Assembly: GCA_003140595.1 (NCBI GenBank)
Contig: PLKG01000095.1
Location: 5,694 to 69,693, forward strand
Source: Acidimicrobiaceae bacterium
GTDB taxonomy: Bacteria > Actinomycetota > Acidimicrobiia > Acidimicrobiales > Bog-793
Direction: 5' to 3'
DNA length: 64,000 bases
Numbering within the stretch: the first letter of the stretch is position 1; every line of letters starts with the position of its first letter. Positions 14,483 to 55,577 of the stretch are shown here, piece by piece. Position numbers and translations under genes: made by a program. The notes under the pieces were generated by a model. That model did no database searches. It was not told the DNA's origin and was given only the letters and a program-made list of their open reading frames with translations.

Positions 14483-14502
14483 TGGCCTAGTACGGTACTC
14501 CT

Positions 14503-15861: not shown

Positions 15862-15886
15862 GCTTGGGTTTTCGACGGCCTTGGCG

Positions 15887-16117: not shown

Positions 16118-16141
16118 TCTGAGACAAAGGGGAACGCCACC

Positions 16142-16342
16142 GTGGCGACCGGCGTAGTGAAGTGGTTCAACAGCGAGAAGGGCTACGGCTTCATCTCACA
16201 GTCCGACGGCGTGGACGTTTTCGTTCACCACTCGTCTATCCAAATGTCCGGTTACCGGACCCTCACCGAGGGCCAGGAAGTCGAATTCGACGTTCAGGAG
16301 GGCCAGAAGGGGCTGCAGGCAGCCAACGTCCGGGCGCGCTGA
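16142..16342 (+). CDS. cspA: Cold-shock protein (CspA family)
   Basis: [33 protein letters not shown] carries the RNP1/RNP2 motifs. At 66 aa it has canonical Csp length, starting from GTG 16142. The upstream part of the track ORF (from 16013) is leader. Confidence 0.9.
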
Positions 16343-16363
16343 GTCCGCGCACTCCCGGTGGAT

Positions 16364-16380
16364 CCGCTGCTGAGCAGCGG
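16364..16380 (+). terminator. Hairpin after the csp stop
   Basis: CCGCTGC-TGA-GCAGCGG, 22 nt after the stop. The stem can extend with a bulge. No clear U tract. Confidence 0.4.
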
Positions 16381-16607
16381 TCCTCGCAATCGTCGGGTCC
16401 TGTCCAACCGGGCTCGGCCTCAAAGCTCGGTTCCATATGTCGAGCCGCCTGTTCTTCGCGCCTCGGACGACGGGGCCGGCCACGCGCGCTGTCACAGGTA
16501 GCCGAGGCTGCGCCGTTTCCGGCGGGGGTCGTGCGGTCTCCAGCGACTGGTCGATGACGTCGGAGGAGCCGAGTAAGTGGCACGCGGTCCCGGACCCGAG
16601 GTAGGCG

Positions 16608-17828: not shown

Positions 17829-18200
17829 TCGAGAGGCTGGCGGCACGATGGCCTTTGAACCAATAGCGATCGACCGGATCATGCGCGGCATCGTGCACAA
17901 GTGGGACGGGGATCCCGGTCACGACCGTGGTGGCCACGATCGCGCAAGCGATGACGACGGCCTAAATCCTGGGCGGAGCCGCTCCCGTAGCCGGACACGA
18001 CGTTCGCGAGGCATCGGGGTTCGCCACCGCCGCCGTTGACGAGCACGACCTAGCCCCTACAGAGATGGCGGAGCGTGGTCTGATGACTCTCTACGGTCGA
18101 GCTGAGAAGTCAGGGCGCGCTCAGCACGCGAAAGGTGCCGAGGACGCACCCCTCGACACGGTCAATCGACACCGTGACGAGCCCGCGGCAGAATCTTCCC

Positions 18201-18671
18201 ATGGCCGAGTCGCAATCTCCTCGAAGGTATGCCGAACCGGGCTGGTTCACGCGCAATGTCGCTAATCGTCTTGTAGCGACGCTGACACGGGCGGGTGTGA
18301 GCGTTTGGGGATCGCGCGAGCTCCGGGTCCGCGGGCGCACGAGCGGGGAGTGGCGGTCTACGCCGGTAAACCTGCTCAGCTTCGCCGGCGAGCACTACTT
18401 GGTGGCTCCTCGCGGTGAGACGCAGTGGGTGCGCAACCTTCGCGTCGCTGGTGACGGCGAGTTACGCGTCGGACGCCGGACTCAGGTGTTTCAGGGGCGA
18501 GAGCTGGCCGACGCAGAAAAGCCCGACATTCTCCGCGCCTACCTCAAGAGGTGGAAGGCGGAAGTGGGTGTCTTCTTTGCAGGTGTCGGCGCTGATGCGT
18601 CGGACGCCGACTTGCTTCGCATCGCACCGGGGCACCCGGTCTTCCGAATCGCGTTCACCGAAGACCCGTGA
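18201..18671 (+). CDS. Deazaflavin (F420)-dependent nitroreductase family protein (DDN-like)
   Basis: NVANRLVATLTRAGVSVWGSRELRVRGRTSGEWRSTPVNLLSFAGEHYLVAPRGETQWVRNL is typical of the family. Start taken at ATG 18201. Confidence 0.75.
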   Translation: MAESQSPRRYAEPGWFTRNVANRLVATLTRAGVSVWGSRELRVRGRTSGEWRSTPVNLLSFAGEHYLVAPRGETQWVRNLRVAGDGELRVGRRTQVFQGRELADAEKPDILRAYLKRWKAEVGVFFAGVGADASDADLLRIAPGHPVFRIAFTEDP

Positions 18672-18685
18672 ACAGGCGCCTTTTT
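18653..18685 (+). terminator. Intrinsic-terminator-like hairpin plus T5 run at the end of the DDN-like gene
   Basis: GTTCAC-N9-GTGAAC with the stop codon inside the 3' arm, then AGGCGCC and TTTTT. T runs are rare in this sequence. Confidence 0.45.
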
Positions 18686-18930
18686 CCTCGAACAGGGATC
18701 CTTCGGCGGCATTTACCGGTAACCGCATGTCGGCCACGGATCAACCCAGCCACCGGCCAGCCTGCGCTGTCAGTCACGGCGAGCTACGCGTCGCGGAGTG
18801 GCGCAGCTCATGAGCGCTCGGGGGCGAGCACCGCAAGGACGGCGGGAAGAGAGTCGTGAGACCACCACGAGCCCACGTCACACGAGCGAAGGCGGGCTCG
18901 AAGGTGGCGCTGAGCACCACCGCTCGTTTC

Positions 18931-28967: not shown

Positions 28968-29654
28968 ATGCCGCCTGCTGTTCGTCTCCACGAGGCCGTA
29001 GCGCTCGCCGGCCGATTCCCCCTCCTCGCAGGAGCCTGTCTGGAAGTTGGCGAAGGCGAGGTTGTGCATCTGCGCGGCCCGAACGGCGCGGGCAAGACGA
29101 GCCTGCTCAAGGTCCTCGCCGGGTTGTTGCCGGTGCACTCGGGCGAGGCGACCGTGCTCGGCTGGGACCTGGTGGCCGATCGGCGTGCGGTGCGGGGACA
29201 GGTGGGCATGCTCGGCCACGAGTCGTTCCTATACGAGGAGCTGACGGTGGAGGAGAACCTGGAGTTCGCTGTCCGAGCCTCGAGGGGCCCGGTCGTGGGA
29301 ATCCGCCCGGCGCTCGAGCAGTTCGGTTTCACGGGTCGCCTCGCGTCGATTCCGCTGGCACGGTGCTCCGCCGGCCAGCGGCGACGGGCCTCTCTTGCCC
29401 TGCTCGTCGCGCGGGGTGCCCGGTTGTGGTTGCTCGACGAGCCGCACGCGGGCCTTGACCAGGACGGCCGTGATCTTCTTGACGAGCTCCTCGCTGGGTC
29501 ACGGGCCGCTTCTCGCACCGTCGTGTTCGCCTCGCACGAGCTCGAGCGTGCAACGGCCATCGCGGACCGGACTGTTCACTTGGCGGGTGGCCGCGTAGTC
29601 GAGCCGCCGAAGACCCCCGAGTCGGTCGAACAAGCGGCGGCCCATGTTGCGTGA
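28968..29654 (+). CDS. ccmA: Heme exporter ATP-binding protein CcmA-like
   Basis: Walker A GPNGAGKTS, signature CSAGQRRR and Walker B LWLLDEPHAGLD. It is the first gene of the ccm operon. Confidence 0.8.
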   Translation: MPPAVRLHEAVALAGRFPLLAGACLEVGEGEVVHLRGPNGAGKTSLLKVLAGLLPVHSGEATVLGWDLVADRRAVRGQVGMLGHESFLYEELTVEENLEFAVRASRGPVVGIRPALEQFGFTGRLASIPLARCSAGQRRRASLALLVARGARLWLLDEPHAGLDQDGRDLLDELLAGSRAASRTVVFASHELERATAIADRTVHLAGGRVVEPPKTPESVEQAAAHVA

Positions 29655-30312
29655 CGCCGTGCTCGTCGCGGGGAAGGATCTCCGCATCGAGATCCGCTCC
29701 AGGGTCGGGCTGAACCAGATCGGTCCATTTGCGCTCGCTGTCCTGCTCCTGTTCGGCCTGGCGCTCGGCCCTGACCGAAGGGTCCTCGCTCCAGCTTCGG
29801 CGGGCCTGTTCTGGGTAGCGGTCCTGCTGTCGACGATTCTCGGTGTTCAGCGCAGCTACGCCATCGAGTCCGTGGACGGGGCCCGAGACGGCCTGCGCCT
29901 GTCCGGCCTTGACCCGGCCGGGATCTTCCTCGGCAAGGCCGGTGCAGTGGTGGTCCAGCTTCTAGTTCTGGAGACTGCGCTCGCCGTCGGAGTTGCCTTG
30001 CTCTACGGGGCGCGCTTGTCGGGCGCTCTGGTCCTGATTGGCACGTGCGTCCTCGGTACCTTCGGGCTTGCGGCGGTCGGCACGCTTTATGGGGTCGTCG
30101 CCTCCGGACTGCGGATCCGCGAGACGCTTCTCCCACTGCTGTTCCTCCCAGTGGTCTCCCCGGTCCTGCTCGCCGCGACCAAGGCATGGGACGAGGCGCT
30201 CGCGGGAACGCCCGGCCGTGCGGGCGGCTGGCTGGACGTGCTCGCGGTCTTCGCCGTGCTCTATGTCGCCACCGGCATCGTCGCGTTCGGGCCGCTCTTG
30301 GAGGACGGATGA
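29644..30312 (+). CDS. ccmB: Heme exporter permease CcmB-like
   Basis: Six-helix membrane protein of CcmB size. It overlaps ccmA by 11 nt and ccmC by ATGA. Confidence 0.75.
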   Translation: MLRDAVLVAGKDLRIEIRSRVGLNQIGPFALAVLLLFGLALGPDRRVLAPASAGLFWVAVLLSTILGVQRSYAIESVDGARDGLRLSGLDPAGIFLGKAGAVVVQLLVLETALAVGVALLYGARLSGALVLIGTCVLGTFGLAAVGTLYGVVASGLRIRETLLPLLFLPVVSPVLLAATKAWDEALAGTPGRAGGWLDVLAVFAVLYVATGIVAFGPLLEDG

Positions 30313-31064
30313 GAGCCTCGACGCGCACCGTGCCGTCAGAACGTGTCGCTGTGGCGCTTCGCGTACTGGGTGTCGCATCGCTTGTGGGGGTGGTCGCGAC
30401 CGTGTGGTTGGGTCTGTTCGTCACGCCGCCCGACGAGTTCATGGGCAATCTCGTGCGCCTTCTCTACGTCCATCCTCCGATGGCGTGGGTCGCCTTCTTG
30501 GCCTATGGCGTCGCCAGCCTCGCGAGCCTGCTCTATTTGTGGCCACGAACGAGAAGCGAGCGCTTCGACCGCCTTGCCGGAGCCTCGGGCGAGGTCGGTG
30601 TCGTGTTCACAGGCCTCACGTTGGTGTCCGGGTCGATCTGGGGGCGGCCGACCTGGGGCGTGTGGTGGGTGTGGGATCCGCTGCTCACGACCACGGCGTT
30701 GCTTTTCGTGCTCTATCTCGGCTATCTCGCTCTGCGCCGCGTGCCCGGAGAGTTCCATGTTCGAGCCCGCCGGTCGGCGATCGGGGCCCTGATCGCGTTC
30801 ATCGACGTTCCGATTGTCTACCTCTCAGTTGAGTGGTGGCGAAGTCTGCACCAGGCACCGACGGTGCTCAACCCGACCACGCACAAGACCTATGTCCACG
30901 GCTCGATGGCCTGGACTCTTCTGCTCGGTTTCGTGTCGTTCACCCTCGTGTACACCTGGCTCGTAGCACACCGGTACCGGCTTGCCGAGTTGCAGGACGC
31001 GCAGGACACCGAGGGGCTCGAGATCGCCCTCGCGGAGCGTCGAGCAGAAGCGGTGGGAAGGTGA
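30309..31064 (+). CDS. ccmC: Heme exporter protein CcmC
   Basis: LYVHPPMAWVAF and the WWD motif WGRPTWGVWWVWDPLLTTT. The true start is ATG 30309. The 5' part of the track ORF from 30045 overlaps ccmB out of frame. Confidence 0.9.
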   Translation: MRASTRTVPSERVAVALRVLGVASLVGVVATVWLGLFVTPPDEFMGNLVRLLYVHPPMAWVAFLAYGVASLASLLYLWPRTRSERFDRLAGASGEVGVVFTGLTLVSGSIWGRPTWGVWWVWDPLLTTTALLFVLYLGYLALRRVPGEFHVRARRSAIGALIAFIDVPIVYLSVEWWRSLHQAPTVLNPTTHKTYVHGSMAWTLLLGFVSFTLVYTWLVAHRYRLAELQDAQDTEGLEIALAERRAEAVGR

Positions 31065-31300
31065 ACGGCTACGTCGAGGCCGGCTACATAATGGTCCTCG
31101 GCACGCTTTCGTCCTACGGGGTGGCCCTCGTTGCCCGTGAGCATGCCGCCAGGCGACGAGTCGGTACGGCAGCCGTCGAGGAGTCCATTGCCACCTCGGC
31201 CGATGCCCCCGTCACGGATCTCACCTCGCCAGCTCCCCGAGATACTCCGGTGGTGATGCCTGGTGAGCTCGAGCAGGACGCACCGGGGAGAGCCCCATGA
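31061..31300 (+). CDS. ccmD: CcmD-like small membrane protein (tentative)
   Basis: GTG 31061 overlaps the ccmC stop (GTGA). There is a single helix GYVEAGYIMVLGTLSSYGVALVA followed by REHAARRR, in the CcmD position. The ~45-aa tail is atypical. Confidence 0.4.
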   Translation: MNGYVEAGYIMVLGTLSSYGVALVAREHAARRRVGTAAVEESIATSADAPVTDLTSPAPRDTPVVMPGELEQDAPGRAP

Positions 31301-31896
31301 GCGACATCGGTCCGACCGGTGTCACCACGGCCGACTCGGCCACGGGCCCCGGCCGCCCGGGGTCATCGCGGGACGGCTTCGAGGACGAGTCGGCCTCCGG
31401 TGAGGCAGGGACAGCCCTGTCCGCGCCTCGGCGCATACCTAGGATCTTGAGCCCCGAACAACGGCGTCAACGTCGGCGGCTGGAAGTGGCAGGCGTTGTG
31501 ATCGTCGCCGCGATCGGCTTCCTCGTCTTCAAAGGGCTCACGTCCGCGATCGTGTTCTTCAAGACCGCCAACGAAGCCGTTGCACAGCGCGCGACCCTCG
31601 GCAACAGCACCTTCCAGCTCGAGGGCATGGTCTTACCGGGGACCGTTCACCTGATTCGGGAGAGCTCGGGGACGACAGTGGGCTTTGTCGTCGAATCGAG
31701 TGGCGTCAAGGTCGCCGTGACCAATACCGGATCGCCTCCGCAGCTGTTCCAGCCGGGGATCCCGGTCATCGTCGTCGGCCACTTCGTCGGTGCCTCGGAC
31801 CGGTTTGCTTCGGACCAGATCCTCGTCAAGCACTCCAACAGCTACATTGCGGCGCACCCGAACCGGGTGAGGGCGCTGAACGGGACGAAGAGATGA
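31297..31896 (+). CDS. ccmE: Cytochrome c heme chaperone CcmE
   Basis: TM anchor VAGVVIVAAIGFLVF, an OB-fold region FQLEGMVLPGTV...GIPVIVVGHF, and the heme-binding H-x3-Y in ILVKHSNSY. An alternative start at TTG 31447 would remove the low-complexity N-terminus. Confidence 0.8.
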   Translation: MSDIGPTGVTTADSATGPGRPGSSRDGFEDESASGEAGTALSAPRRIPRILSPEQRRQRRRLEVAGVVIVAAIGFLVFKGLTSAIVFFKTANEAVAQRATLGNSTFQLEGMVLPGTVHLIRESSGTTVGFVVESSGVKVAVTNTGSPPQLFQPGIPVIVVGHFVGASDRFASDQILVKHSNSYIAAHPNRVRALNGTKR

Positions 31897-33953
31897 ACGC
31901 GGCTCTGGGGCTGATCGGTGTCGCGCTCGGCCTGCTTGCGGCGGTGGCGGGAGTTGTCACGATCGGGGCGGGTTTGGCGACAGGTCGCCAGTCGCTGTTC
32001 CTGCATGCCCGCACATTTGCCTTCTGGGTGCTCGCCGGGGCGGTCCTTGCGACCGTAGGCATGGAGCGGGCGCTTTTGACCCACGACTTCTCGATCGCTT
32101 TCGTGGCGGCGAACAACAGTCGTGAGACGCCGACGCTGTACTCCATCACCGGCATGTGGTCGGCTCTCCAGGGTTCGATCCTGCTTTGGGCCCTGATCCT
32201 CGCCGGGTACCTGGCGGCGATGACCCACGCGTTCCGCAAGCGGGCATCCGATCCTCTCGTGGCATGGTCGAGCCTGGTGGGGCTCTGCGTGGCCGTCTTC
32301 TTCTTCGCCCTCATGGCGGGTCCCGCGAACCCGTTCGCGCATGTCATCGGCAGGATCCCTGGCGATGGTTCCGGCCCGAACCCGCTCCTGCAGGACAACC
32401 CGCTGATCGCTTTCCATCCGGTCCTGTTGTACTTGGGCTTTGTCGGCTTCACCGTGCCGTTCTGCTTCGCCATAGCCACGCTCGTGACCGGGCGCCTCAA
32501 TGAGGGATGGCTCGGGGAGACCCGCCGATGGACGCTGTTCGCATGGGTCTTTCTCACGATCGGCATCGTGCTCGGGGCCTGGTGGTCCTACCAGGTCCTC
32601 GGGTGGGGGGGCTTTTGGGGTTGGGACCCGGTGGAGAACGCGGCGCTCCTGCCGTGGCTTTGTGGCACGGCGTATGTGCACTCGGTGATGGTCCAAGAAA
32701 GGCGCGGCCTCCTGCGGGTCTGGAACCTGTCACTTCTGATAGCGGCGTTCTCGCTCACCATCCTCGGGACGTTCCTGACCCGTTCCGGGGTGCTGGTATC
32801 GGTGCACTCCTTCTCGAACTCGACGGTCGGCCCGGTGCTGCTGAGTTTCTTCGGCCTGGTTGTCGCCGTCAGCATCGGGCTGATCGCCTGGCGCGGTGAC
32901 CGCCTGCGTTCGCCCGGGACCATCGACGCCGCCGTATCGCGGGAGGGTGCATTCCTCCTCAACAACCTCCTCTTCGCAGGTTTCGCGCTCGTCGTGCTCC
33001 TCGGAACCGTCTTCCCGCTCTTTGTCGAGGCGGTGACCGGCCAACAGATCACTGTGGGGCGGCCCTACTTCGACACGATGACCCTTCCGATCGGTTTTGC
33101 ACTCCTGTTCTTCATGGCGGTCGCGCCGGCGCTCCCGTGGCGAAAGGCGGCGCCGGGCGTGCTTCGCCGCCGCCTCGCGATACCGGCATGGATCGGGGTC
33201 GGTGTCATCGTGGTCTGCGTCCTCGCGGGCGTGCGCGGTTTGACCCCTCTCGTTGCCTTTGGTCTGGGCGGATTTGCCGGGGCGAGCGCGGTGCGCCAGG
33301 TGGTGCTCGCGGCTGTCGGTTCACACAACGCGGGCGGGGGACCATGGCGGGCACTGTTCGGCCGTGCAAACGGCGGGATGATCGTGCATCTCGGCGTCGT
33401 CGTGGTTGCGGTGGCCCTCGCTGCGGCCAGCTCTTATGGCCAGCGGACACAACTGGTCTTGAAGCCCGGTCAGTCGATTCGCTACGACGGTCACATCTTC
33501 ACCTACGTGGGCTCGAAGCGATTCAGTCTGCCGAACAAGAGTGGCGAGATAGCGACGGTCTTAGTGGACGGGGCGCCCTTCCAACCGGCCATCAGCGTCT
33601 TCCCCGGAAGCGAGGGGATCGGTACCCCGGCCGTGGACTCGTCGGTCCGCGAGGACACCTATCTCACCGTCGCCGACATCGACGTCTCGCCGCATGGCCC
33701 GGCGACCATCGACGTCGTCATCCAGCCCATGGTGCTGTGGCTCTGGGTCGGCGGGGCCATCACGGCTTTCGGGGCAGTGCTCGCCGCGATCCCCAGTCGG
33801 CGCCGGCGAGGTTCCAAGGACAGGCGCGCAGTGCCCGGGACATCAGAGCTGACCGGTTCGCAGGAGATCCGACTTGCTGAGACGGTCCAGGATCACGGAC
33901 CGGGCCCCGACGACGTGACCCAAGCGCCCGTCGGTGCGGGAGCAAATTCGTGA
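31893..33953 (+). CDS. ccmF: Cytochrome c heme lyase subunit CcmF
   Basis: WWD motif GWGGFWGWDPVENAALLPWL, ~15 helices, 686 aa. ATGA overlap with ccmE. Confidence 0.9.
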   Translation: MNAALGLIGVALGLLAAVAGVVTIGAGLATGRQSLFLHARTFAFWVLAGAVLATVGMERALLTHDFSIAFVAANNSRETPTLYSITGMWSALQGSILLWALILAGYLAAMTHAFRKRASDPLVAWSSLVGLCVAVFFFALMAGPANPFAHVIGRIPGDGSGPNPLLQDNPLIAFHPVLLYLGFVGFTVPFCFAIATLVTGRLNEGWLGETRRWTLFAWVFLTIGIVLGAWWSYQVLGWGGFWGWDPVENAALLPWLCGTAYVHSVMVQERRGLLRVWNLSLLIAAFSLTILGTFLTRSGVLVSVHSFSNSTVGPVLLSFFGLVVAVSIGLIAWRGDRLRSPGTIDAAVSREGAFLLNNLLFAGFALVVLLGTVFPLFVEAVTGQQITVGRPYFDTMTLPIGFALLFFMAVAPALPWRKAAPGVLRRRLAIPAWIGVGVIVVCVLAGVRGLTPLVAFGLGGFAGASAVRQVVLAAVGSHNAGGGPWRALFGRANGGMIVHLGVVVVAVALAAASSYGQRTQLVLKPGQSIRYDGHIFTYVGSKRFSLPNKSGEIATVLVDGAPFQPAISVFPGSEGIGTPAVDSSVREDTYLTVADIDVSPHGPATIDVVIQPMVLWLWVGGAITAFGAVLAAIPSRRRRGSKDRRAVPGTSELTGSQEIRLAETVQDHGPGPDDVTQAPVGAGANS

Positions 33954-34504
33954 TCGCCCTGCGTCGCCACGTGCGGCTCGCGCGATGGGCCGCGTGCGTT
34001 GTCGGTCTCGGCGTGCTCGGGCTCGTCGCGGTGCTGGCGAGCCGGCCCGCCGCGACTCAGACGGCCTCGAGCTTCCTGATCGGCAAGCCCGCTCCGCCCG
34101 TTGAGGGCCGCAATCTTGCAGGCGGCGTCTCGTCATTGGCAAGTCTTCGCGGTCGCTGGGTGGTCCTCAACTTCTTTGCGAGCTGGTGTCCCCCATGCCG
34201 GAGCGAGTCACCTGATCTCGTCAGGTTTGCGTACAGCCATCCAGCCGGGCAGCGAGTCGCGGTGATGGGTGTCGTGTTCGGCGACACGGCGGCCAACGCC
34301 GCGGCCTTCGAGCGACAGGCCGGAGCCACCTGGCCGTCGGTCGTCGATCCGGACGAGGCGATCGCGATCAGCTATGGCGTCGACGATCCTCCGCAGTCAT
34401 TCCTGATCGCCCCCGATGGCAAGGTCGTGGACAGGATCCTCGGGGGAGCGACTGCGGACGGCCTGGACCGACTTGTCGCGCACGGCGTCGCGGCGCACGA
34501 GTGA
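33950..34504 (+). CDS. ccmG: Thiol:disulfide oxidoreductase CcmG/DsbE (TlpA family)
   Basis: TM anchor plus the thioredoxin motif FFASWCPPCRSE. GTGA overlap with ccmF. Confidence 0.85.
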   Translation: MIALRRHVRLARWAACVVGLGVLGLVAVLASRPAATQTASSFLIGKPAPPVEGRNLAGGVSSLASLRGRWVVLNFFASWCPPCRSESPDLVRFAYSHPAGQRVAVMGVVFGDTAANAAAFERQAGATWPSVVDPDEAIAISYGVDDPPQSFLIAPDGKVVDRILGGATADGLDRLVAHGVAAHE

Positions 34505-34971
34505 CAACGCAGGTCGAACCGACGACGCGGCACAACGGCTGGCGCTCCGGCCAGCATGTCGCCTCTGTTCTCGCGTCCCGACCGGCTTGGGTGATCGTGG
34601 CCGTTATTGCCGTGCTCGCGCTGGGCTTTGGAAGCGTGCACCCGGCACAGCCCAGCTCATCGGCGAGGATCGCCCACCTTGACAGCGTGATCAAATGCCC
34701 GAGCTGCATCGACCTGTCGATTGCTCAGTCGGACGCGCCCATCGCAGTCGGGTTGCGGGCCGAGGTTGCCGCGTGGGTCCATGAGGGGCTGAGCGACGCG
34801 CGGATCAAGGAACTGGTCGTCGCGCGCTTCGGCGAACAGGCGCTGCTGGTTCCCTCCGGGTCGGGAGCAGACATTCTCCTGTGGGCCGTGCCGGTCGTCG
34901 CCATCGGCGGTGCAGGGGTTCTACTCGCCGTGTACCTGTGGAGGCGCCGGCGCCTCGAGGCGTCCCGGTGA
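34501..34971 (+). CDS. ccmH: Cytochrome c maturation protein CcmH/NrfF
   Basis: IKCPSCIDLSIAQSDAPIA (CxxC motif), RIKELVVARFGEQALL, and a C-terminal TM segment. GTGA overlap with ccmG. Confidence 0.8.
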   Translation: MTTQVEPTTRHNGWRSGQHVASVLASRPAWVIVAVIAVLALGFGSVHPAQPSSSARIAHLDSVIKCPSCIDLSIAQSDAPIAVGLRAEVAAWVHEGLSDARIKELVVARFGEQALLVPSGSGADILLWAVPVVAIGGAGVLLAVYLWRRRRLEASR

Positions 34972-35918
34972 ACCTCAAGAGCGCGAGCGGCCGGCGGGGT
35001 GCCGGGAGCGGGTCGCGTCGATCGAGCCCCGACGCGTTGGCGAACGAGCGGCAGTTCCTCCTCCAGTCGATGGAGGATCTCGAGGACCAGCGCGCGGCGG
35101 GCGAGGTCGATGAGGAGGACTTCGCAGTCCTCGATTCGCGCTACGGAAGGCGCCTCGCCGAGGTCGAAGCTGCGATCGCGGACCTTCCGGCACCTGCTCT
35201 TGAGACCCCCGGCCCCGCAGCGCCCGAGCGCGCCCGAAACCCCGGCGGCACTGACCTGCTTGCGAACCGGCTCGACGGCGCTGCTCGCGCATCGGCGGCT
35301 GGCCGGATGCGCCGGTGTCTTGCGGGCCGGCGGACGCGCCTGTTGGTCGGGATCGGCGCGGCCGTGTGTTTCGCCGTGGCGGCGATCCTGCTGGCGGCGT
35401 CGCTCGCCGGTGTCCGCCTCCCGGGTGAGTCAGCGACGGGATCGGTGTCGGTGTCGTCGGCCCAGCTGGAGCAGGAGACGCTCGACCGGGCCGCGATCCT
35501 CGGCAGCGAAGGTCGGGTGGCAGAGGCGGTTCAGCTCTACAACCAAGTGCTGCAGAAGGACCCGAACCAACCCGACGCCCTTGTGTACGGCGGCTGGCTG
35601 GTTCGCCTCGCAGGGCTCGCGTCCAAGAATCAGCTCGTGGTCGCCCGGGGTGACGCGTCAGTCGCGAGGGCAGTCAAGATCGCGCCCGCCTACCCCGACG
35701 GTCACGCACTTTTCGGCGTGATCCTCTACGAGGATTTCGGTAGACCGGGTGCCGCCTCGGTCCAGTTCCGGGACGCGCTCGACACGCGAGCCTCCAAGAA
35801 CCTGCTGATGTCGGTCGCCGCGATAGCGGCGAAAGCCTTCGCGGCTTCGAGGGAGCCGTTGCCGTCCCGCTACGGCGCTGCCGCCAGGAGCGCCGCGATG
35901 CAGGCCCCGCCCGGCTGA
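34968..35918 (+). CDS. CcmI-like TM plus TPR protein (tentative)
   Basis: GTG 34968 overlaps the ccmH stop. There is one TM segment, LLVGIGAAVCFAVAAILLAASLAG, and a C-terminal TPR-like region AEAVQLYNQVLQKDPNQPDALVYGGW. Confidence 0.55.
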   Translation: MNLKSASGRRGAGSGSRRSSPDALANERQFLLQSMEDLEDQRAAGEVDEEDFAVLDSRYGRRLAEVEAAIADLPAPALETPGPAAPERARNPGGTDLLANRLDGAARASAAGRMRRCLAGRRTRLLVGIGAAVCFAVAAILLAASLAGVRLPGESATGSVSVSSAQLEQETLDRAAILGSEGRVAEAVQLYNQVLQKDPNQPDALVYGGWLVRLAGLASKNQLVVARGDASVARAVKIAPAYPDGHALFGVILYEDFGRPGAASVQFRDALDTRASKNLLMSVAAIAAKAFAASREPLPSRYGAAARSAAMQAPPG

Positions 35919-49018: not shown

Positions 49019-50695
49019 TCAGCCGGTCGCGATGTACTTGTCCTGGGTCGTCAGGCTCAATGATGCGCCGGACGACCCGATCACCTCTTTGGCGGCTGCC
49101 GAGTTGAATAAGAGCGTGAACGAGTTCGAGTCGGACAAGCCCCCGCACGCAAGAATCTGTCCCGTCATAGCCGAGGAGTTCGAATAGCTCACTTCTCCCG
49201 GCGAGTACACCAGGGTGGCGATGTTCGACTCGAAGTCGACATAGCCGCTGAAGCTTGCGTCAAGAGACGAGGTGCTGCACGTCGAAGGCTGGCCCGCAAG
49301 GATCGTGAGATTGGGGCCGGGGGTCCCCGCAGACGAGCACGCGTAGGAGTTGGCACTCGACTCCTGGCAGAAGGTGTTGGAGCTCTGGAACGACACCGCC
49401 CCGATCTCGAGGATGGCGTCGCCCTGAGGAGAGGGGTTGAGTGCGAACACCTGCGAGTTCTGGTAGGTGACGGGACTTGCCGGCGTCCCGCACGTCGGCG
49501 CCTCGTAGACAGTCCGCGTGTTCTGATTCTCGAGCGCGGACTGGAACGGGTCAGGGAAGACAACCCTGCTCCCGCTGTCCTCGTTGTCGATGTTGGCGAA
49601 GTACGTGGCGCACGTGTAGCTGGAGTTCGGGATCGACACGATGTTCCAGCCCGTGCTCGGCAGGGTGATCGCAGGGAAGGCGATCACTGCGGGCATCGTC
49701 TGTGACGACAGCGCTGAGTCATTCGGGTTCTTGGTTCCCCCCAGGGTCCCGCCATTGGTGATGGAGATGGTGCCTGTCGCGTACGCGTTGCCGGCGATTC
49801 TCCCATTCGGCACTTCGATGCTCCCGTTGGTCTCGGTCGCGTTCCCGACGATGAGTGGATTTCCGCTAAGGCAGATCGAGTAGTACGGGGAGCCTCCGCT
49901 GCACGAGGTGCCGGCGGTGTTGCCCCCGTAGGAGATCACGTTGCCCGTGACCAGAGCGCTGCCCTGCATGTTCACCGGTCCTGCCGAAGTCAGGTTCCCT
50001 CCGAACGAGCACGTGCCAGACAGGACGATCCCTTGCGCATATTGGGTGACCAGGTTGCCTGTGCTCGCGGTCCCGTTTGCGCAGGTGACCTGTCCGCCGG
50101 CGTAGATGTCAGGAGTTGCCGTTCCGGTCTGCAGTGTGGCCGCGTCCACGAGATTGACGCTGTTCTCGGTGAAGATCGCATAGCCGAGTGCCGCGCTGGT
50201 CGAAGAGTTCACCACGATCCCGAGGTCCTCTCTCATGACGGCCGTGATGCCGTGGGGAGCCTTGCCAGAAGCGGTCAGAGTGGCGTTCGTAGGGGCGGTG
50301 ATGCCTCCTAGGGTGGTACCGACGGTAGGAGGACACGCCAGCTGCGTGCCGGCGGCCGAATAGGTCACGACCACTGCGTAGCTCGAGGTAGCTCCGGTCA
50401 CGCCGAGTGCGCCGGTGAGATCGCAGGGCAGGGCGCCGTAGGTCGAGGCGTTGCGCATCGCTGTGATCTCGGTGGCCAGTCCCGTCTGTGCCGCCATCTC
50501 CCCCTGGGCCTCTGCTGTGTAGCCATTCGACTGGGCGAGGCCGGCACGAGCTGACGCCAAGGCAGCGACCAGGGTCGTGATGAGCAGCAGCGCGACGATG
50601 AGCACGATCACGAGTGCTTGGCCGCTCTCGGTCCGTCGATCGTATATGCGAGCAAACGGGGGCACCTTCAACTCCTCAACTCGTCGGTGCGGCAC
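49019..50695 (-). CDS. Large PilX-N-like pseudopilin/adhesin candidate with a Gly/Asn/Thr/Ser-rich beta-helix-like core
   Basis: N-terminal SGQALVIVLIVALLLITTLVAALASA (PilX_N-like hydrophobic helix without the G/FTLIE site). The core carries many short repeats of the type GNLTSAGPVNMQGSALVTGNVISYGGN, with many paired Cys. An alternative start at GTG 50665 avoids overlap with the upstream gene. Confidence 0.6.
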   Translation of the reverse strand: MPHRRVEELKVPPFARIYDRRTESGQALVIVLIVALLLITTLVAALASARAGLAQSNGYTAEAQGEMAAQTGLATEITAMRNASTYGALPCDLTGALGVTGATSSYAVVVTYSAAGTQLACPPTVGTTLGGITAPTNATLTASGKAPHGITAVMREDLGIVVNSSTSAALGYAIFTENSVNLVDAATLQTGTATPDIYAGGQVTCANGTASTGNLVTQYAQGIVLSGTCSFGGNLTSAGPVNMQGSALVTGNVISYGGNTAGTSCSGGSPYYSICLSGNPLIVGNATETNGSIEVPNGRIAGNAYATGTISITNGGTLGGTKNPNDSALSSQTMPAVIAFPAITLPSTGWNIVSIPNSSYTCATYFANIDNEDSGSRVVFPDPFQSALENQNTRTVYEAPTCGTPASPVTYQNSQVFALNPSPQGDAILEIGAVSFQSSNTFCQESSANSYACSSAGTPGPNLTILAGQPSTCSTSSLDASFSGYVDFESNIATLVYSPGEVSYSNSSAMTGQILACGGLSDSNSFTLLFNSAAAKEVIGSSGASLSLTTQDKYIATG

Positions 50696-51365
50696 TTGTG
50701 GTCGTACAAGCCGGCGTGGTGGGCAACGACGAACTGGCCATGCTGAATGCCGAGACAGCCGAGCGGATCTCGAGCGTCTGCGACAAGCGGCCGGGATGCT
50801 CCTTCACCTGCAGGTCGATCGACAACTCCTGAGGCAAGCCCGGATTCGGAGTGCTGGTGAACGGTGTGACGGTCGAGTTGGAGATGCCCGTGGCGACCGT
50901 CACCCATCCTCCCCCCGCCGTCCCGGGGGTGTACCTGTCCTCCTGCAGCAGGCCCGAGGTCGTGTTGACCTGCCACTGTTCCCACCGCCAGGTTGACGTT
51001 GATGCGGAGGTGACCTGTTCGATCCTCAGCGCGAACCCGGACGCAGCGGTCAGCGGTGTCCCACTCTTCGGCGCCGTCAGCTGGGTCGGCAGGCACATCT
51101 GGCTTGCCGAGGCCACCTGCGTGCCGAGGTTCTGCATGGCCAGCTCCGCCTGAGCCGCTCCGGTCACTACGGCCCGTGCGCTCGAGGTCGCGGTCGTCGT
51201 CGTGGCGAGGATCGACGGGAGGAGGGACACGACGATCAAGAGAAGTGTCATGGAGACCACGACCTCGATCAGCGTGAACCCGCTCGAGTCGCCGCCTGCA
51301 TTGTGGTGCGAGGCACGGTGATGCTCGTTGGCGACCCTGCGGCGAACAGCTGGCTGTGAGGTCAC
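50676..51365 (-). CDS. Prepilin-type N-terminal cleavage/methylation domain protein (PilW-like minor pilin)
   Basis: GDSSG/FTLIEVVVSMTLLLIVVSLL is the class III signal. I place the start at GTG 51365, which overlaps the upstream stop (GTGA). The track ORF starts at 51425. Confidence 0.65.
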   Translation of the reverse strand: MTSQPAVRRRVANEHHRASHHNAGGDSSGFTLIEVVVSMTLLLIVVSLLPSILATTTTATSSARAVVTGAAQAELAMQNLGTQVASASQMCLPTQLTAPKSGTPLTAASGFALRIEQVTSASTSTWRWEQWQVNTTSGLLQEDRYTPGTAGGGWVTVATGISNSTVTPFTSTPNPGLPQELSIDLQVKEHPGRLSQTLEIRSAVSAFSMASSSLPTTPACTTTSAAPTS

Positions 51366-51931
51366 GGCGCTGCGATCCCGTCTTCGCCGACGACCTGGTC
51401 CTTGCCACCGGTCGGTGACTTCCATGTCACGATGACGACAACGGTCACGAGGCCGGGAGTAGAGGTGCTCGTCGTCGGGTAGGTGTCAACCGTGTAATTG
51501 ATTCCCTCGAGGACAGCAGTGACGTGGGGGACAAGGGGTGGCTCGGAGCTGTTCGTGTTGGACACCGGGATCGTCGATGCCGCCGTCGGGGCGATATTGC
51601 CGTGCAACTCCAGCATGTAGCTTGAGCCGGACTTGACGATGTTGGGGTCGTTCGCCAAGGAGTCAGCGGTCGGGTTGAGCCCACTCACAAGGTAGGGGAA
51701 CGGGAGCGCGACCGCTTGTGCCATGGCGGCACTCATGATGCCGGTGGCGTCCGACCGCTCCTTACCGATCGAGGCCGCAGACAGACTCCCGATCGCTCCC
51801 CTGGTCGCGGCCAGCAAGATGATGGCGAGAAGCGTGATGCCAAGCAGCGTCTCGATCAGGGTGGATCCCCGATCGTCGCAGCCTGAAGGGCGAAATCGGG
51901 CAAAACGAGGGTGCTTGTGGGCGAACTGCAT
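51362..51931 (-). CDS. Prepilin-type N-terminal domain protein (PilV/GspH-like minor pilin)
   Basis: DDRG/STLIETLLGITLLAIILLAA. The start is ATG 51931 or ATG 51991. Confidence 0.6.
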   Translation of the reverse strand: MQFAHKHPRFARFRPSGCDDRGSTLIETLLGITLLAIILLAATRGAIGSLSAASIGKERSDATGIMSAAMAQAVALPFPYLVSGLNPTADSLANDPNIVKSGSSYMLELHGNIAPTAASTIPVSNTNSSEPPLVPHVTAVLEGINYTVDTYPTTSTSTPGLVTVVVIVTWKSPTGGKDQVVGEDGIAAP

Positions 51932-52308
51932 ACGGCCCTTCCCTATGGGCCGAAAGCGCCTCGAACAACTTTTCATCGCTCCCTCTTCCAACTAGTTGTA
52001 TCGGCGCCCTGAGCTGCGGACTGAACCTCGACATTTGACGACTCGGCCAACGTGGGCAATATCGGTAGGTGAGTCCGCCATGTCCTACGCCTGATGTTTG
52101 AATGTGCAGCCCTGAATTATGGTCCGACCCTGGCCCCAAGCGTGCGTCCGTGGTGCCCGCGCGAAGGCTGAACAGCTGGTCCAAGCCTCGGATGCACCCC
52201 AAAGGATCAGCCGATTGGTGGGCCCGACTCCTTCCCGCAGTGCAAAAATGTCTCCCGGTTCGCCGGACGATTTTCCGATTCACTGGGTTGCAATTCGATC
52301 AATGTTTT

Positions 52309-52343
52309 GACCGGGTCGTCAGAGAGTCTGGTCGCTTATTTTT
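52309..52343 (+). terminator. Orphan intrinsic-terminator-like element inside the long non-coding gap
   Basis: GACCGGG-N11-TCTGGTC (7 bp including two G-U pairs) followed by GCTTATTTTT. It has the longest T run I noticed in the window, and no annotated gene ends here. Confidence 0.3.
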
Positions 52344-52802
52344 GGGCTCCGCCTGGTCGAACCTGGGGACTTACGCCCGCTAAATCCAGGTCAACCAAGA
52401 GTCCGACAAATTCGGAATGTGAACTCGAAGTTCGGTGCGATCTGGCAAGGAGTTCCTCGACACAGCCGAGCTCGGTCGGACGGTCATCGATGCTCGAGGC
52501 ATTCTTGTAGGAAGCGTGCAGCTCGCCGGGGCCCGCCGTTTTCGACCCTCCTCAGGTGCGACCCCAAGCGTGTCGGCACTGGCCCGACAGCCCAACCGCG
52601 ACAGGTCGCGTCCCAACAACGCTCGCTCGTCCGGCCCCGGCCGGCGCGGGCCTGAACGACATGGAGCGGGAACGCCCCTTGTCATCTGGGCCGAAAAGGG
52701 GCTGAAAGCCTCCACCCGTTGAGGCCAAAGGATATGTATCGTCGGTCGGCCGAAGGTATACGCGACCCGCGTTGCCAGAGCGCGCACGAAGGACTTCACC
52801 GG

Positions 52803-54236
52803 TTGCTGTTCCCGACAACTGATTTCGCAATCTTCTTCGGGATCGTCTTCGTCGGCAACTGGCTGCTCGCGCCTTTCCCCAAGCGCTGGCGCGTGTTCAT
52901 TCTCATCGCCAGCTACGTGTTCTACGGATGGTGGGACTGGCGGTTCGTGTTCCTCCTCGCGATATCCACGCTGTGCACGGTTGTTGGAGGTCGCCTGGTC
53001 CACCGGTCCGGGGTGGCGTCGGCCCGGCGGGCCTGGTTGATAGCGACCGTCGCCGCCGAGCTGTGCCTGCTGGGCTGGTTCAAGTACGCAGGGTGGTTGA
53101 GCCTCAATCTCGACAACGTGGTCCACCACCTCGGGATGGGCGACCCGATCCCGTTGATCCAAGTCACGCTTCCCGTCGGTATCTCGTTCTTCACCTTCAT
53201 GGGTCTGTCCTACGTGATCGACATCTACCGGGGGAGCCTGGAGCCCTCACCGTGGTTGGACGTGGCGGTCTTCGTTGCGTTTTTCCCGCACCTGGTTGCC
53301 GGGCCGATCGTGCGCGGGTCCGACCTCTTGCCCCAGATCCGCAGAGCTCACCGACGCGACCCGCGCAGGATTGCGCTCCCAAAGGCCGCGTACCTCATCT
53401 TCGGCGGCCTGTTCAAGAAAGTCGTGCTCTCCAGCTACGTCTCATCCCAGATCGTTGACCCGGTGTTCGCAAACCCTCACACGCACTCGTCGTTCGAGGT
53501 TCTGCTGGCTATTTATGGCTATGCGGTGCAGATCTACTGCGACTTCAGTGGCTACACCGACATAGCCATCGGCTGTGCCCTCCTGCTCGGCTTTCGTTTC
53601 CCCGAGAACTTCAATGCCCCTTACACCGCCCGGTCCTTGCAGGACTTCTGGCGACGGTGGCACATCACCTTGTCCCTGTGGCTTCGCGACTACCTGTACA
53701 TCCCTCTCGGGGGCAACCAGGGATCGCGGGCCACGATGTATCGCAACATCATGGTCACGATGGTGCTCGGGGGACTGTGGCACGGCGCGGCCTGGACCTT
53801 TGTCGCGTGGGGCACTCTTCACGGGCTGGGACAGTGCACAGGCCACTACCGTCGCGCCAAACGTGTCGAGAGGGGGCTCTCGCCTCAACGAGAGGGCCGC
53901 GGCTGGATCGCATGGGAACGGTTCGCGACCTTCCAGCTCGTCTGCGTGGGATGGGTCTTCTTCCGGGCCACCTCGTTCGCCAACGCGTTCGCAATGTTCG
54001 GCCGATTGTTCACCGGTTGGAGCCAGCCCTCGCCCCTGGTGAATTTCGCGGTGCTGCTCGTGATCGCCGTCGGTATTGGGTCCCAGTACGTACCCCCGGC
54101 CTTGCCGCTCCGCGCGCAAGAGGTGTTCTCGCGCCTTAGCGTGTACGCCCAGGGCGCGGTGCTTGCCGCTGTCCTGCTGGTCATCACGACCCTTGGTCCT
54201 CCGGGTGTCGCGCCGTTCATCTACTTCCGCTTTTGA
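52803..54236 (+). CDS. MBOAT-family membrane O-acyltransferase (AlgI/DltB/PatA-like)
   Basis: FFPHLVAGPIVR, YCDFSGYTDIAIGCALLLGFRFPENFNAPY, the catalytic-His region FWRRWHITLSLWLRDYLYIPLGGN, and GLWHG. A TTG 52803 start gives the family-typical N-terminus MLFPTTDFAIFF. The track ORF starts at 52719. Confidence 0.85.
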   Translation: MLFPTTDFAIFFGIVFVGNWLLAPFPKRWRVFILIASYVFYGWWDWRFVFLLAISTLCTVVGGRLVHRSGVASARRAWLIATVAAELCLLGWFKYAGWLSLNLDNVVHHLGMGDPIPLIQVTLPVGISFFTFMGLSYVIDIYRGSLEPSPWLDVAVFVAFFPHLVAGPIVRGSDLLPQIRRAHRRDPRRIALPKAAYLIFGGLFKKVVLSSYVSSQIVDPVFANPHTHSSFEVLLAIYGYAVQIYCDFSGYTDIAIGCALLLGFRFPENFNAPYTARSLQDFWRRWHITLSLWLRDYLYIPLGGNQGSRATMYRNIMVTMVLGGLWHGAAWTFVAWGTLHGLGQCTGHYRRAKRVERGLSPQREGRGWIAWERFATFQLVCVGWVFFRATSFANAFAMFGRLFTGWSQPSPLVNFAVLLVIAVGIGSQYVPPALPLRAQEVFSRLSVYAQGAVLAAVLLVITTLGPPGVAPFIYFRF

Positions 54237-54272
54237 GACTGGGATGATCTTGTCGAAGGTGGCACGAGCTAG

Positions 54273-55577
54273 TTGACGAACTCGCGAAACACACCCGGAT
54301 CGGCCGGCCGCGAGCCGAGCCGAAAAGGCCAGCAGCGCCCGGTGAGGCGCGCAAGTCAGGCCAGGTCCGGACCGGTCCCGACGCGACGGTCGGGCACATC
54401 GGCGCGGGCCCGCTCGGCCCGGCTCGGTGTCACCACGAAGGCCGCCCGCTCCACGGACCCGAGAGGGCGGTTGAGTGCACATGGTGAGGGCGCGCCGACT
54501 GACAAGAGAAGACGGGCGTCGGCGGGCCGCATAATCGCGGTAGGTCTCGTCTGCTTTGGGGTCTGGCTCTTCTTCGACGCGAACCAGCTGTACCACTCTG
54601 CCGAGGCCGGCCAGATCGGGGTCCGCAGAACTGTGGCGATGTCCCTCCTCCGCCCGATCGCCGCGTTCGCCGGCGCGATCGGGTTCTCCGGACCTGTGAA
54701 CGCCGCCGACTCAGCCTTGGGGAGATGCGGCATCGGCGGGGCACCTGCGTGCGACACTGGTCCGCTGACCACCGTCGTCCCCGTGGTCGCCCCCTTGCCG
54801 CGACCGGTGGGTTATCTCGGCCTCGGTGCTGCGCCGCATCTCGGGCCCGGGGTCCACTACATCCCCCCACCGCCCCCGCCGGTGGTGCCAGCCGGGCCGC
54901 CGCCGCTCGTTTCCCCTACGCCGTCTCGCCCGATGACCCTGCTCTCGATCGGGGACTCTGTGGGGGAGGACCTCGGTTTCGGCCTCGGAGACGTCTTCTC
55001 CCAGGACCTGGCGGTACGCGTCGTCCAAAAGGGTCTCGAGGACACGGGCTTGGCGCGGATCGACTACTACAACTGGCCGGTGACCCTCGAAACCGAGTTG
55101 AGGCGCTACCACCCGGAGATCGTGGTCGTGATGCTCGGTGCCAACGACATGCAGTCGTTCTCGGTCGGCAACGGACGTTACCTGTTGTTCTCGATGGCCT
55201 CGGCGACTTGGTGGCGGGCGTACGCGGCCAGGGTCGCGCTCGTCATGGAAGAGGCAACCTCGGCCGGTGCCCACGTGATGTGGGTCGGATTACCGCCGAT
55301 GGGGGCCGCCTCGACCGTGCCGGCAGGCTTCCCACAGAAATTGGACCGGGTCTTCCTCATCGAGGCACGTCGGCACCCGGGCGTGACCTACTACCCCTCT
55401 GACAAGGTTCTCGCCACGCGGCGGGGAGGCTTCATCATGTGGCTCTCGGTCAACGGATCGTACGAGCAGATCCGTTCGAGCGACGGCGTGCACCTTCTTC
55501 CGGCCGGCTACGACCTGCTCGCCAAGGCGCTCGTGCAGCCCATGGAGCGTGCCTGGAACGTGAACTTGCACCTCTGA
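54273..55577 (+). CDS. SGNH/GDSL-hydrolase-fold protein (DUF459-like) with an Arg-rich N-terminus, one TM segment and a Pro-rich linker
   Basis: TM segment IIAVGLVCFGVWLFF, linker IPPPPPPVVPAGPPPLVSP, block I LLSIGDSVGEDLG, block III VVVMLGANDMQ, and block V SDGVHLL. Confidence 0.7.
   Translation: MTNSRNTPGSAGREPSRKGQQRPVRRASQARSGPVPTRRSGTSARARSARLGVTTKAARSTDPRGRLSAHGEGAPTDKRRRASAGRIIAVGLVCFGVWLFFDANQLYHSAEAGQIGVRRTVAMSLLRPIAAFAGAIGFSGPVNAADSALGRCGIGGAPACDTGPLTTVVPVVAPLPRPVGYLGLGAAPHLGPGVHYIPPPPPPVVPAGPPPLVSPTPSRPMTLLSIGDSVGEDLGFGLGDVFSQDLAVRVVQKGLEDTGLARIDYYNWPVTLETELRRYHPEIVVVMLGANDMQSFSVGNGRYLLFSMASATWWRAYAARVALVMEEATSAGAHVMWVGLPPMGAASTVPAGFPQKLDRVFLIEARRHPGVTYYPSDKVLATRRGGFIMWLSVNGSYEQIRSSDGVHLLPAGYDLLAKALVQPMERAWNVNLHL

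Follow-up and report, generated by a model that had tools for sequence, protein, structure and literature searches.

Organization of the minor-pilin-like cassette

A 64,000-nucleotide (nt) stretch from an Acidimicrobiaceae bacterium (GenBank assembly GCA_003140595.1, contig PLKG01000095.1, positions 5,694 to 69,693), referred to below as the window, was analysed for a cassette of three genes resembling those for the minor pilins of type IV pili (T4P). Three adjacent and co-oriented open reading frames (ORFs) were confirmed on the minus strand, with maximal extents of 51362-51991 (ORF3), 50676-51425 (ORF2) and 49019-50695 (ORF1). The same three consecutive genes had been pointed out by an earlier inspection of the letters alone (hereafter the sequence-only reading); the likely starts give shorter products, the large protein being of 548 amino acids (aa) and not 558. 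Counted from the likely starts, the cassette spans 51976-49019 on the minus strand.

ORF3 (51362..51976, minus strand), the first minor pilin, stands in the PilV/GspI position and probably starts at ATG 51976 (204 aa) or ATG 51931 (189 aa), which are preferred because the gene calls of close relatives start there; the maximal ORF reaches 51991. ORF2 (50676..51365, minus strand), the second minor pilin, in the PilW/GspJ position, probably starts at GTG 51365, overlapping the stop codon of ORF3. This start, giving 229 aa, is favoured because a public gene call (P0029), 99% identical to ORF2, has exactly the same length. ORF1 (49019..50665, minus strand), the putative PilX/GspK/ComZ-like tip pilin, probably starts at GTG 50665, as in the public protein P0001.

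Prepilin signals of ORF3 and ORF2

Both class III prepilin signals proposed by the sequence-only reading were recovered. The leader of ORF3 reads ...DDRG/STLIETLLGITLLAIILL, giving the signal G/STLIE with its Gly codon at 51868, and that of ORF2 reads ...DSSG/FTLIEVVVSMTLLLIVV, giving G/FTLIE with its Gly codon at 51281. ORF2 passed the cutoffs of both Pfam N_methyl (26.8 bits, 3.5e-6; cutoff 21.2) and TIGR02532 (20.4 bits; cutoff 16.3), while ORF3 fell just under both (19.5 bits with E=7e-4, and 13.1 bits, respectively). In the ORF3 family (alignment A2), a motif consisting of the cleaved Gly and then S/F/Y-x-(L/I/V)-(L/I/V)-E, followed by a hydrophobic helix, is kept, the Glu at position 5 (Glu5) is nearly invariant and the globular part is conserved. 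The class III signal motif is thus conserved in the families of both proteins.

ORF2 contains two conserved Cys residues, C91 and C220. Its AlphaFold2 (AF2) model, built on an alignment of 11 sequences, was too poor for use (predicted local distance difference test score, pLDDT, 36) and drew a 56-residue helix followed by strands. Beyond N_methyl, no Pfam family matched any member of the ORF3 (A2) or ORF2 (A3) families, and a search of the PDB with the two family profiles found no pilin globular domain.

Predicted structure of ORF1

The N-terminus of ORF1 reads ...RRTESG/QALVIVLIVALLLITTLVAALA, in which G15/QALVI leads into a hydrophobic helix with no Glu at position +5. Gly15 is nearly invariant in an alignment of 74 members of the ORF1 superfamily and, by the absence of Glu5, ORF1 would belong to the cap-type minor pilins. 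The AF2 model of ORF1, based on an alignment of 25 sequences, was confident (pLDDT 82.6). According to this model, residues 14-72 (50450..50626, minus strand) form a 59-residue alpha-1 helix with a hydrophobic N-terminal half (DSSP assignment), followed by a five-stranded region (50204..50422, minus strand; strands 82-86, 95-104, 107-109, 127-135 and 142-154). Residues 164-302 (49760..50176, minus strand) are predicted as a beta-solenoid of regular short strands, similar to that of ice-binding proteins (IBPs), and residues 341-547 (49025..49645, minus strand) as a C-terminal beta-rich and Cys-rich region that ends in a long strand at 534-547. At the very C-terminus, a DKY(I/V)xxG tail is conserved.

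The composition of ORF1 is rich in Thr (11.7%), Ser (12.0%), Asn (6.4%) and Gly (10.9%) compared with the window background (4.9, 6.2, 1.9 and 8.9%, respectively), and basic residues are scarce (Lys 0.7%, Arg 1.6%). Of the 12 Cys residues, 8 are invariant across 25 homologues. The short repeats read earlier in this protein hold as quasi-repeats of the beta-solenoid and not as tandem repeats, of which Tandem Repeats Finder detected none within ORF1; the program reported one weak array of 15 nt and 2.1 copies at 51820-51850, in the 5' end of ORF3.

When the ORF1 model was compared with the PDB by Foldseek, the top match was ComZ of Thermus thermophilus (6qvi_B, E=6.2e-4, probability 0.98). The beta-helices of tapirins followed at ranks 2-8 (E 0.04-0.2), and ice-binding proteins were found as well. 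IBP and DUF3494 matches were also obtained for ORF1, together with a sub-threshold Bactofilin match in the solenoid region. As modelled, ORF1 appears to combine a GspK-like pilin domain with an IBP-like beta-solenoid, in an architecture like that of ComZ.

The ORF1 superfamily

A word-indexed search with ORF1 gave 28 relatives, all from Acidimicrobiales-type metagenome-assembled genomes (MAGs) or metagenomes. The gene is carried by 12 GTDB species representatives, 11 of which are labelled Acidimicrobiales, Acidimicrobiaceae or Actinomycetes, the record title of the twelfth naming a delta proteobacterium. One locus (L013, CAWCMR010000011.1) is titled 'uncultured delta proteobacterium' and contains an Acidimicrobiales-type cassette with the same triad of genes and about 40% identity to ORF1, which suggests a mislabelled or chimeric bin.

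An exhaustive hidden Markov model (HMM) search, with a profile of 25 ORF1-family sequences, extended the family to 1108 clusters (E<=1e-3), of which 439 reach <=1e-10 and 72 reach <=1e-30, the members being mostly of 460-560 aa. The alignment of 74 members showed the N-terminal consensus R-x-E-x-G-x-A-L...QA..AAEAG, similar to the N-terminal motif of PilX. When these 74 were scanned individually, PilX_N was found in 11 (best 7.3e-7), Ice_binding in 4, DUF7305 in 3 and Bactofilin in 17. By sequence alone, the superfamily profile matched FfIBP at 3.7e-5 and ComZ at 4.8e-3, and in two members the GspK N-terminus of NCBIfam was matched, with values (1.6e-3 and 6e-3) that fall well short of the cutoff. 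The homology of ORF1 to PilX_N and GspK is transitive only. The proposal of a giant PilX-like beta-helix protein in the sequence-only reading is supported by the modelled solenoid, by ComZ as the best PDB match and by the PilX_N members of the superfamily.

In public databases, superfamily members are named 'PilX N-terminal domain-containing protein' or 'Tfp pilus assembly protein PilX'. In IMG, many of them are annotated as 'cytoskeletal protein CcmA (bactofilin family)'. The bactofilin matches are a beta-helix artefact; for secreted, Cys-rich, pilin-like proteins this annotation is almost certainly wrong, with a sub-threshold beta-helix similarity behind it.

Homologous triads within complete type IVa pilus loci

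Two distant members of the superfamily, P0116 and P0211, are located within complete type IVa pilus (T4aP) loci of the monoderm type (L021 and L019, respectively). The gene order in L021 is T2SSE, T2SSE, T2SSF, one to three GFTLIEL-type major-pilin-like genes, a triad of genes, Peptidase_A24 (with its N-terminal domain), PilM, PilN and PilO. The order in L019 is the same, except that a single T2SSE gene lies within the stretch examined and two triads are arranged in tandem. The second T2SSE ATPase of the complete loci is consistent with PilT. In these triads the first gene encodes 572-603 aa, the middle one 204-212 aa and the third about 475 aa.

Each of the three cassette families finds its counterpart in the triads. 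The ORF3 profile (A2) matched the N-terminal ~155 residues of the first gene product (41-69 bits, E 1e-13 to 1e-19), the ORF2 profile (A3) the middle one over nearly its full length (33-65 bits), and the ORF1 profile (A1) the third (64-122 bits). In searches of the three profiles against all ORFs of all loci, the corresponding triad genes were found at E 1e-8 to 1e-35. Among these homologues in T4P loci, the first gene weakly matched TIGR02523 PilV (E=1.6e-4) and the third the GspK N-terminus (1.6e-3). Because each family profile matches the corresponding triad gene, the window cassette appears to be a diverged copy of a three-gene module integral to actinobacterial type IVa pilus loci. Its order and Glu5 pattern match PilV-PilW-PilX, equivalent to GspI-GspJ-GspK, and the pilV-pilW-pilX-like order suggested earlier is in agreement with the presence of homologues of all three proteins, in the same order, within complete loci.

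The taxonomy of L019 and L021 is Actinomycetota-like only, as taken from the names of related proteins (Actinomycetota or Acidimicrobiales). In both, the T4aP locus adjoins pepP-efp-nusB; aroC-aroK-aroB-aroQ precede in L019, and alaS-ruvX-yceG lie on the other side in L021. This housekeeping neighbourhood is conserved, and the 21 kb contain no secretin. Published work reports T4aP genes from Actinobacteria (PMC6668835) and from the order UBA5794 of Acidimicrobiia (PMC12008989), and the earlier remark that type IV (non-Tad) pilins are uncommon in Actinomycetota needs correcting to that extent.

Orphan cassettes and their genomic surroundings

No secretion-ATPase Walker A motif was detected anywhere in the 64-kb window, and a by-eye reading of all its large ORFs revealed no pilus machinery gene. 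The absence of a major pilin and of assembly and alignment genes, originally stated for at least 10 kb on either side, thus holds across the whole window. Among 43 loci (the window included; L019 and L021 excluded), no machinery gene was found within up to 10 kb on each side, many of the contigs being short. The 43 include one orphan triad (L020) of a distant superfamily member, P0225. For the window's subfamily, an orphan cassette is the rule. In well-studied T4aP organisms it is normal that minor-pilin clusters lie apart from pilBCD and that several sets occur per genome.

Where upstream DNA exists, about 30 loci show the gene order A2-A3-A1, and the neighbourhoods of the cassette vary from locus to locus. 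A major-pilin-like gene was found just upstream in only 3 of the 43 loci, namely L001 and L006, which represent the same contig, and L025. In L001/L006 (1-7608; from an Acidimicrobiaceae MAG), a gene for a giant repeat-rich protein of more than 2600 aa and a major-pilin-like gene of the GFTLIELLVVLLIIGILLAIAIP type come before the cassette; the best match of the latter gene was the Myxococcus PilA model (8.7e-13). The L025 pilin (2949-3527) occupies the same position and is 73% identical to that of L001/L006.

Extra pilin-like genes or a second divergent triad were observed in some loci (L007, L010, L012/L033 and L014). In L007, the DNA directly downstream of the cassette carries xthA and then a second cluster (12909-19845), which encodes five large pilin-like proteins of 556, 243, ~480 (with the PilX-like N-terminus EGQMVAVLVLV), 539 and 434 aa, several with apparent Ig/IPT-type repeats. 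The ORF2 homologue in L014 (6393-9986) is a protein of 1197 aa, composed of a pilin and an extension of about 1000 aa. In L012 (8310-12603) and L033 (8012-12305), a second divergent triad is located on the opposite strand, a few kilobases from the first.

Base composition of the cassette

A lower GC content was indeed measured, with windowed values of 0.62-0.65 over the three genes and 0.58 in the upstream spacer, compared with about 0.66-0.70 in the flanks. The GC content at the third codon position (GC3) of the cassette genes is 0.77-0.81, against 0.806 +/- 0.021 for 25 other genes of the window, while that at the first position (GC1) is 0.53-0.57, against 0.687 +/- 0.040. Since GC3 is normal and the deficit lies at codon position 1, the dip reflects Thr/Ser/Asn-rich proteins and a non-coding spacer and is no signature of foreign DNA. 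The low-GC island described in the sequence-only reading is therefore real, but its attribution to horizontal transfer is rejected, as the deficit comes from amino-acid composition.

Selection, mosaicism and the upstream leader

The cassette was compared with three close metagenomic relatives (L016, L017 and L018). For ORF3 and ORF2, the protein identity was 85-90%, with a synonymous divergence (dS) of 0.13-0.21, and the ratio of nonsynonymous to synonymous divergence (dN/dS) was 0.30 for ORF3 and 0.38-0.47 for ORF2. By these ratios (0.30-0.47), ORF3 and ORF2 are under purifying selection, with no decay, and the eight invariant Cys residues of ORF1 likewise indicate purifying selection. The ORF1 family reaches down to 31-40% identity, and even there the eight Cys residues and the signal motifs are invariant.

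The similarity among the close relatives is distributed unevenly. A shared part with 88-97% nt identity runs from the upstream leader through ORF3 and ORF2 into ORF1, of which it covers the first 60-130 codons. Within ORF1 the identity is 90-97%, including the helix-encoding stretch 50450..50626 (compared with L016 and L018), up to about position 50490 (codon ~60) for L018 or about 50265 (codon ~133) for L016. Past these breakpoints it falls abruptly to 60-70%, with a dS of 0.6-1.7. The outer flanks are unrelated: the shared DNA ends upstream at 52540 (L018) or 52226 (L017), and downstream of ORF1 nothing is in common. From this distribution, the head-encoding rest of ORF1 appears to be a much older, divergent allele, the conserved unit being the leader with the pilV-like gene, the pilW-like gene and the 5' end of the pilX-like gene. 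Such a mosaic would be the pattern left by recombination, either between strains or between paralogous cassettes.

The upstream leader/promoter region (51977..52540, minus strand; GC 0.58) contains no convincing ORF and travels with the cassette, 250-560 nt of non-coding sequence being shared in this manner among the close relatives. Its identity to L018 is about 82-93%, up to 52540; that to L017 rises from about 75% at the far upstream end (52226-52040) to 83-85% near ORF3. By nhmmer, the leader is conserved only among very close relatives. Because this identity is about the neutral expectation (dS 0.13-0.2), we make no claim of a regulatory RNA. Rfam at gathering thresholds gave nothing for the whole window, the 727-bp upstream spacer gave only a chance lncRNA match and no c-di-GMP riboswitch or the like, and a scan for promoters and terminators gave nothing above shuffled sequences.

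A probable tip complex for a type IVa-like pilus

We consider it probable, at about 70%, that, in a monoderm actinobacterium, the three genes supply a type IVa-like pilus with its minor-pilin tip/priming complex, the motor being encoded elsewhere. The cassette would most likely be a lineage-specific, orphan tip module of the PilV/W/X type (GspI-J-K type) with a ComZ-like cap; it would be no new device but a variant of one already known. Of the two possibilities left by the sequence-only reading, the tip complex that serves machinery encoded elsewhere is supported by the ComZ match, by the PilX_N and Ice_binding relatives and by the triads within T4P loci, and there is no need to invoke a distinct surface or secretion device. 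To our knowledge, the type IVa pili of Actinomycetota are essentially unstudied.

Models of PilIJK and GspIJK hold that a PilI-PilJ pair recognises folded PilK, that the trimer templates fibre growth and that the cap lacks Glu5 (PMC13533445, PMC10191384). For the present cassette, a prepilin peptidase with its gene elsewhere would remove the leaders of ORF3 and ORF2. The PilV/GspI-like ORF3 and the PilW/GspJ-like ORF2 would then pair and dock the Glu5-less, PilX/GspK-like ORF1 on top via the alpha-1 helices, and with this trimer as primer a PilB/PilC platform, also encoded elsewhere, would polymerise a major pilin. At the end of this process the trimer would be located at the pilus tip, where the disulfide-rich solenoid head of ORF1 may act both as cap and as adhesin or receptor, in place of a separate PilY1-type protein, as has been proposed for cyanobacteria. 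With several triads carrying different heads, one machine could make pili of different tip specificity. As the target of ORF1 we favour a variable surface or glycan over DNA, because ORF1 is nearly devoid of Lys and Arg and varies between strains.

A number of observations weigh against the assignment as a pilus tip complex. In the 64-kb window, tblastn with actinobacterial versions of PilB, PilT, PilC, PilD, PilM, PilN and PilO detected none of the seven, nor was a major pilin found; in the window's subfamily, machinery genes are adjacent in none of the loci (the window and 41 others). We infer the presence of a pilus machine elsewhere in the source genome, and the link of the cassette to a T4P machine rests on distant homologues of 22-30% identity. 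No fourth minor pilin of the GspH/FimU type accompanies the cassette. No known pilin family (T2SSI, T2SSJ, PilV or PilW) was matched by the globular domain of either ORF2 or ORF3, and the candidate assignment of these two as J-type and I-type, respectively, is based on gene order, signals and weak N-terminal matches (PilV at 1.6e-4; GspI and GspJ at 0.03 or above). For ORF1 itself, Pfam gave no PilX_N (PF14341) match at E<=1, and the template-modelling score (TM-score) of the ComZ match is low (0.23-0.25), which might be what is expected of a multidomain match.

Among known systems, ComZ of T. thermophilus (PDB 6QVI) is the most similar in architecture to ORF1. ComZ consists of a GspK-like pilin domain with an inserted IBP-like solenoid, binds the adjacent PilA2 and has been argued to be located at the tip (PMC6561018). 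Like ORF1, it is a protein of about 540 aa in which the GspK-like domain is combined with a triangular, IBP-like beta-solenoid; both are without the canonical pilin motif, are encoded beside smaller minor pilins and are proposed as fibre caps. ORF1 differs from ComZ in its low sequence identity (13%), its 12 Cys residues, the near absence of Lys and the extra C-terminal beta-rich region, and DNA binding looks unlikely from its composition. The host also differs, being here a monoderm actinobacterium without the constraint of a secretin.

The same architecture has been described for all cyanobacterial PilX homologues, and in cyanobacterial genomes several minor-pilin sets prime different filaments from one machine (bioRxiv 10.64898/2026.02.12.705559). 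The present cassette resembles the cyanobacterial PilX and HpsA-D proteins in having a PilX-family cap with a bulky solenoid, proposed as a substitute for the PilY1 'plug', and weak HpsB and HpsC matches were obtained here. The phylum and the envelope differ, the cassettes here are three-gene orphans in which the head region is replaced by divergent alleles, and the likeness seen is one of architecture.

With the core minor pilins FimU-PilV-PilW-PilX of Pseudomonas aeruginosa, PilH-I-J-K of Neisseria and GspH-I-J-K of the type II secretion system (T2SS), the cassette shares the I-J-K order, with Glu5 in the first two and a largest, last member without it, and a cluster that can stand apart from pilBCD. 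Unlike these, it includes neither an H-type fourth pilin nor a PilY1/PilC adhesin gene, and its globular domains show no detectable sequence similarity to theirs; the matches to the PilV, GspI, GspJ and GspK models are far below the cutoffs and confined to the N-terminal helix. Finally, the cellulose adhesins of Caldicellulosiruptor called tapirins (PDB 6N2B/6N2C) are, like ORF1, beta-helix surface proteins tied to a Gram-positive T4P locus, the match being not significant. As far as we know, tapirins are not pilins and are without the pilin N-terminal helix.

If the cassette forms a pilus tip, its description defines a module with a large-subunit superfamily of about 1,100 clusters, present within complete T4aP loci of actinobacteria and also in scattered orphan copies, and adds a third phylum, one with a single membrane, to those in which the tip has a solenoid cap. 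Two misreadings are corrected at the same time, that of the low GC content as horizontal transfer and that of these proteins as bactofilin/CcmA. The divergent head region provides a concrete and testable starting point for asking how Acidimicrobiales of soil and peat might change what their pili adhere to. As a tentative extension, Acidimicrobiales could possess several dispersed and interchangeable tip cassettes, with near-identical pilV-like and pilW-like genes and pilX-like 5' ends, to which divergent solenoid heads, with dS close to saturation, are joined by recombination, so that one machine is re-tipped. If this turned out to be true, it would represent a modular system of tip variation for T4P in a monoderm lineage without experimental study of such pili.

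Alternative explanations

The cassette might instead form the tip of a dedicated competence pilus for DNA uptake, with ORF1 as a ComZ-like DNA receptor pairing with an adjacent pilin. ComZ is the best structural match of ORF1 and was also matched by the profile, ComZ itself binds both DNA and its neighbouring pilin (PMC6561018), and weak ComGG and ComGF matches were obtained for ORF1 and ORF2. The DNA binding of ComZ, however, maps to lysines, which with arginines are nearly missing from ORF1, and the two proteins share only the 13% identity given above. Neither comEA nor comEC lies nearby; a holA-like gene was recognised by eye in the window, without an adjoining comEC. The head also differs sharply among close relatives, as would be expected of variable adhesion targets more than of a generic binding of DNA. 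We regard a competence pilus as unlikely.

A pseudopilus tip of a type II-like or Hps-like device, which exports protein or exopolysaccharide, would fit the weak N-terminal matches to GspI/J/K, to XpsI and to HpsB and HpsC, which are hormogonium polysaccharide pseudopilins. In cyanobacteria, the PilX-like HpsA carries a large solenoid (bioRxiv 10.64898/2026.02.12.705559), and the divergent neighbours of the cassette, an MBOAT acyltransferase and a DUF459/GDSL protein, are possibly a pair for polysaccharide O-acylation. This neighbourhood, however, is present in no other locus, and the matches to Gsp and Hps models are all far under their cutoffs. The loci with homologous triads carry a second, PilT-consistent T2SSE gene together with PilM/N/O, in agreement with a retractile T4aP and not with a T2SS, and we therefore give the export device a low probability.

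Still less probable is a stranded remnant, that is, minor-pilin genes left without an assembly machine and either non-functional or used for something other than a filament. Although the lack of machinery in the window and in the 41 other loci of the subfamily and the variable genomic neighbourhood could be read in this way, all three ORFs are intact, with dN/dS values of 0.30-0.47; the eight Cys residues and the signal motifs stay invariant down to 31-40% identity; the gene order is kept in about 30 loci; and a major-pilin-like gene is located just upstream in L001 and L025. Orphan minor-pilin clusters are, besides, normal in T4aP organisms, as described above.

Least probable of all, and rejected here, are TadE/TadF/TadG-type pseudopilins of a Tad (type IVc) pilus, the common type in Actinomycetota: Tad loci occur widely among Actinobacteria (PMC6668835), the role of TadG/CpaL resembles that of PilK (PMC13533445) and G/STLIE of ORF3 resembles some TadE signals, but none of the three proteins gave a Tad-family Pfam match at E<=1, ORF2 with its canonical GFTLIE passes N_methyl, and the homologous triads accompany T2SSE, T2SSF, Peptidase_A24, PilM, PilN, PilO and GFTLIEL-type major pilins and not Tad components.

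Neighbouring genes in the window

The cassette lies between housekeeping genes of an ordinary kind. On one side, these encode a histidine kinase of the PdtaS type, WhiB, a GDPD phosphodiesterase and the beta and alpha subunits of electron transfer flavoprotein. On the other side, the 727-bp spacer is followed by genes for the divergent MBOAT acyltransferase, the DUF459/GDSL protein, a pyrophosphatase and an inositol monophosphatase. The MBOAT and DUF459/GDSL-like genes (52719-55577, plus strand) possibly form a polysaccharide or cell-wall O-acylation pair. A functional link between this pair and the cassette was considered and rejected, since the arrangement is found in no other locus.

Elsewhere in the window, a gene at 18856-20916 (plus strand) encodes a predicted secreted protein of 686 aa with about 14 tandem repeats of ~42 residues (SVTELSASTGALVRVI.G..YGF..P) and weak NHL-repeat matches, probably a beta-propeller. 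As in the pilin genes, its GC1 is low and its GC3 is normal.

Most Actinomycetota are thought to use System II for cytochrome c maturation. At 28968-35918 of the window (plus strand), a complete System I operon for cytochrome c maturation was recognised by eye, including a CcmA-like ABC ATPase, CcmB, CcmC (WGxxWxWD), CcmE, CcmF, CcmG (thioredoxin-like, WCPPC), CcmH (CPSC) and a tetratricopeptide repeat (TPR) protein.

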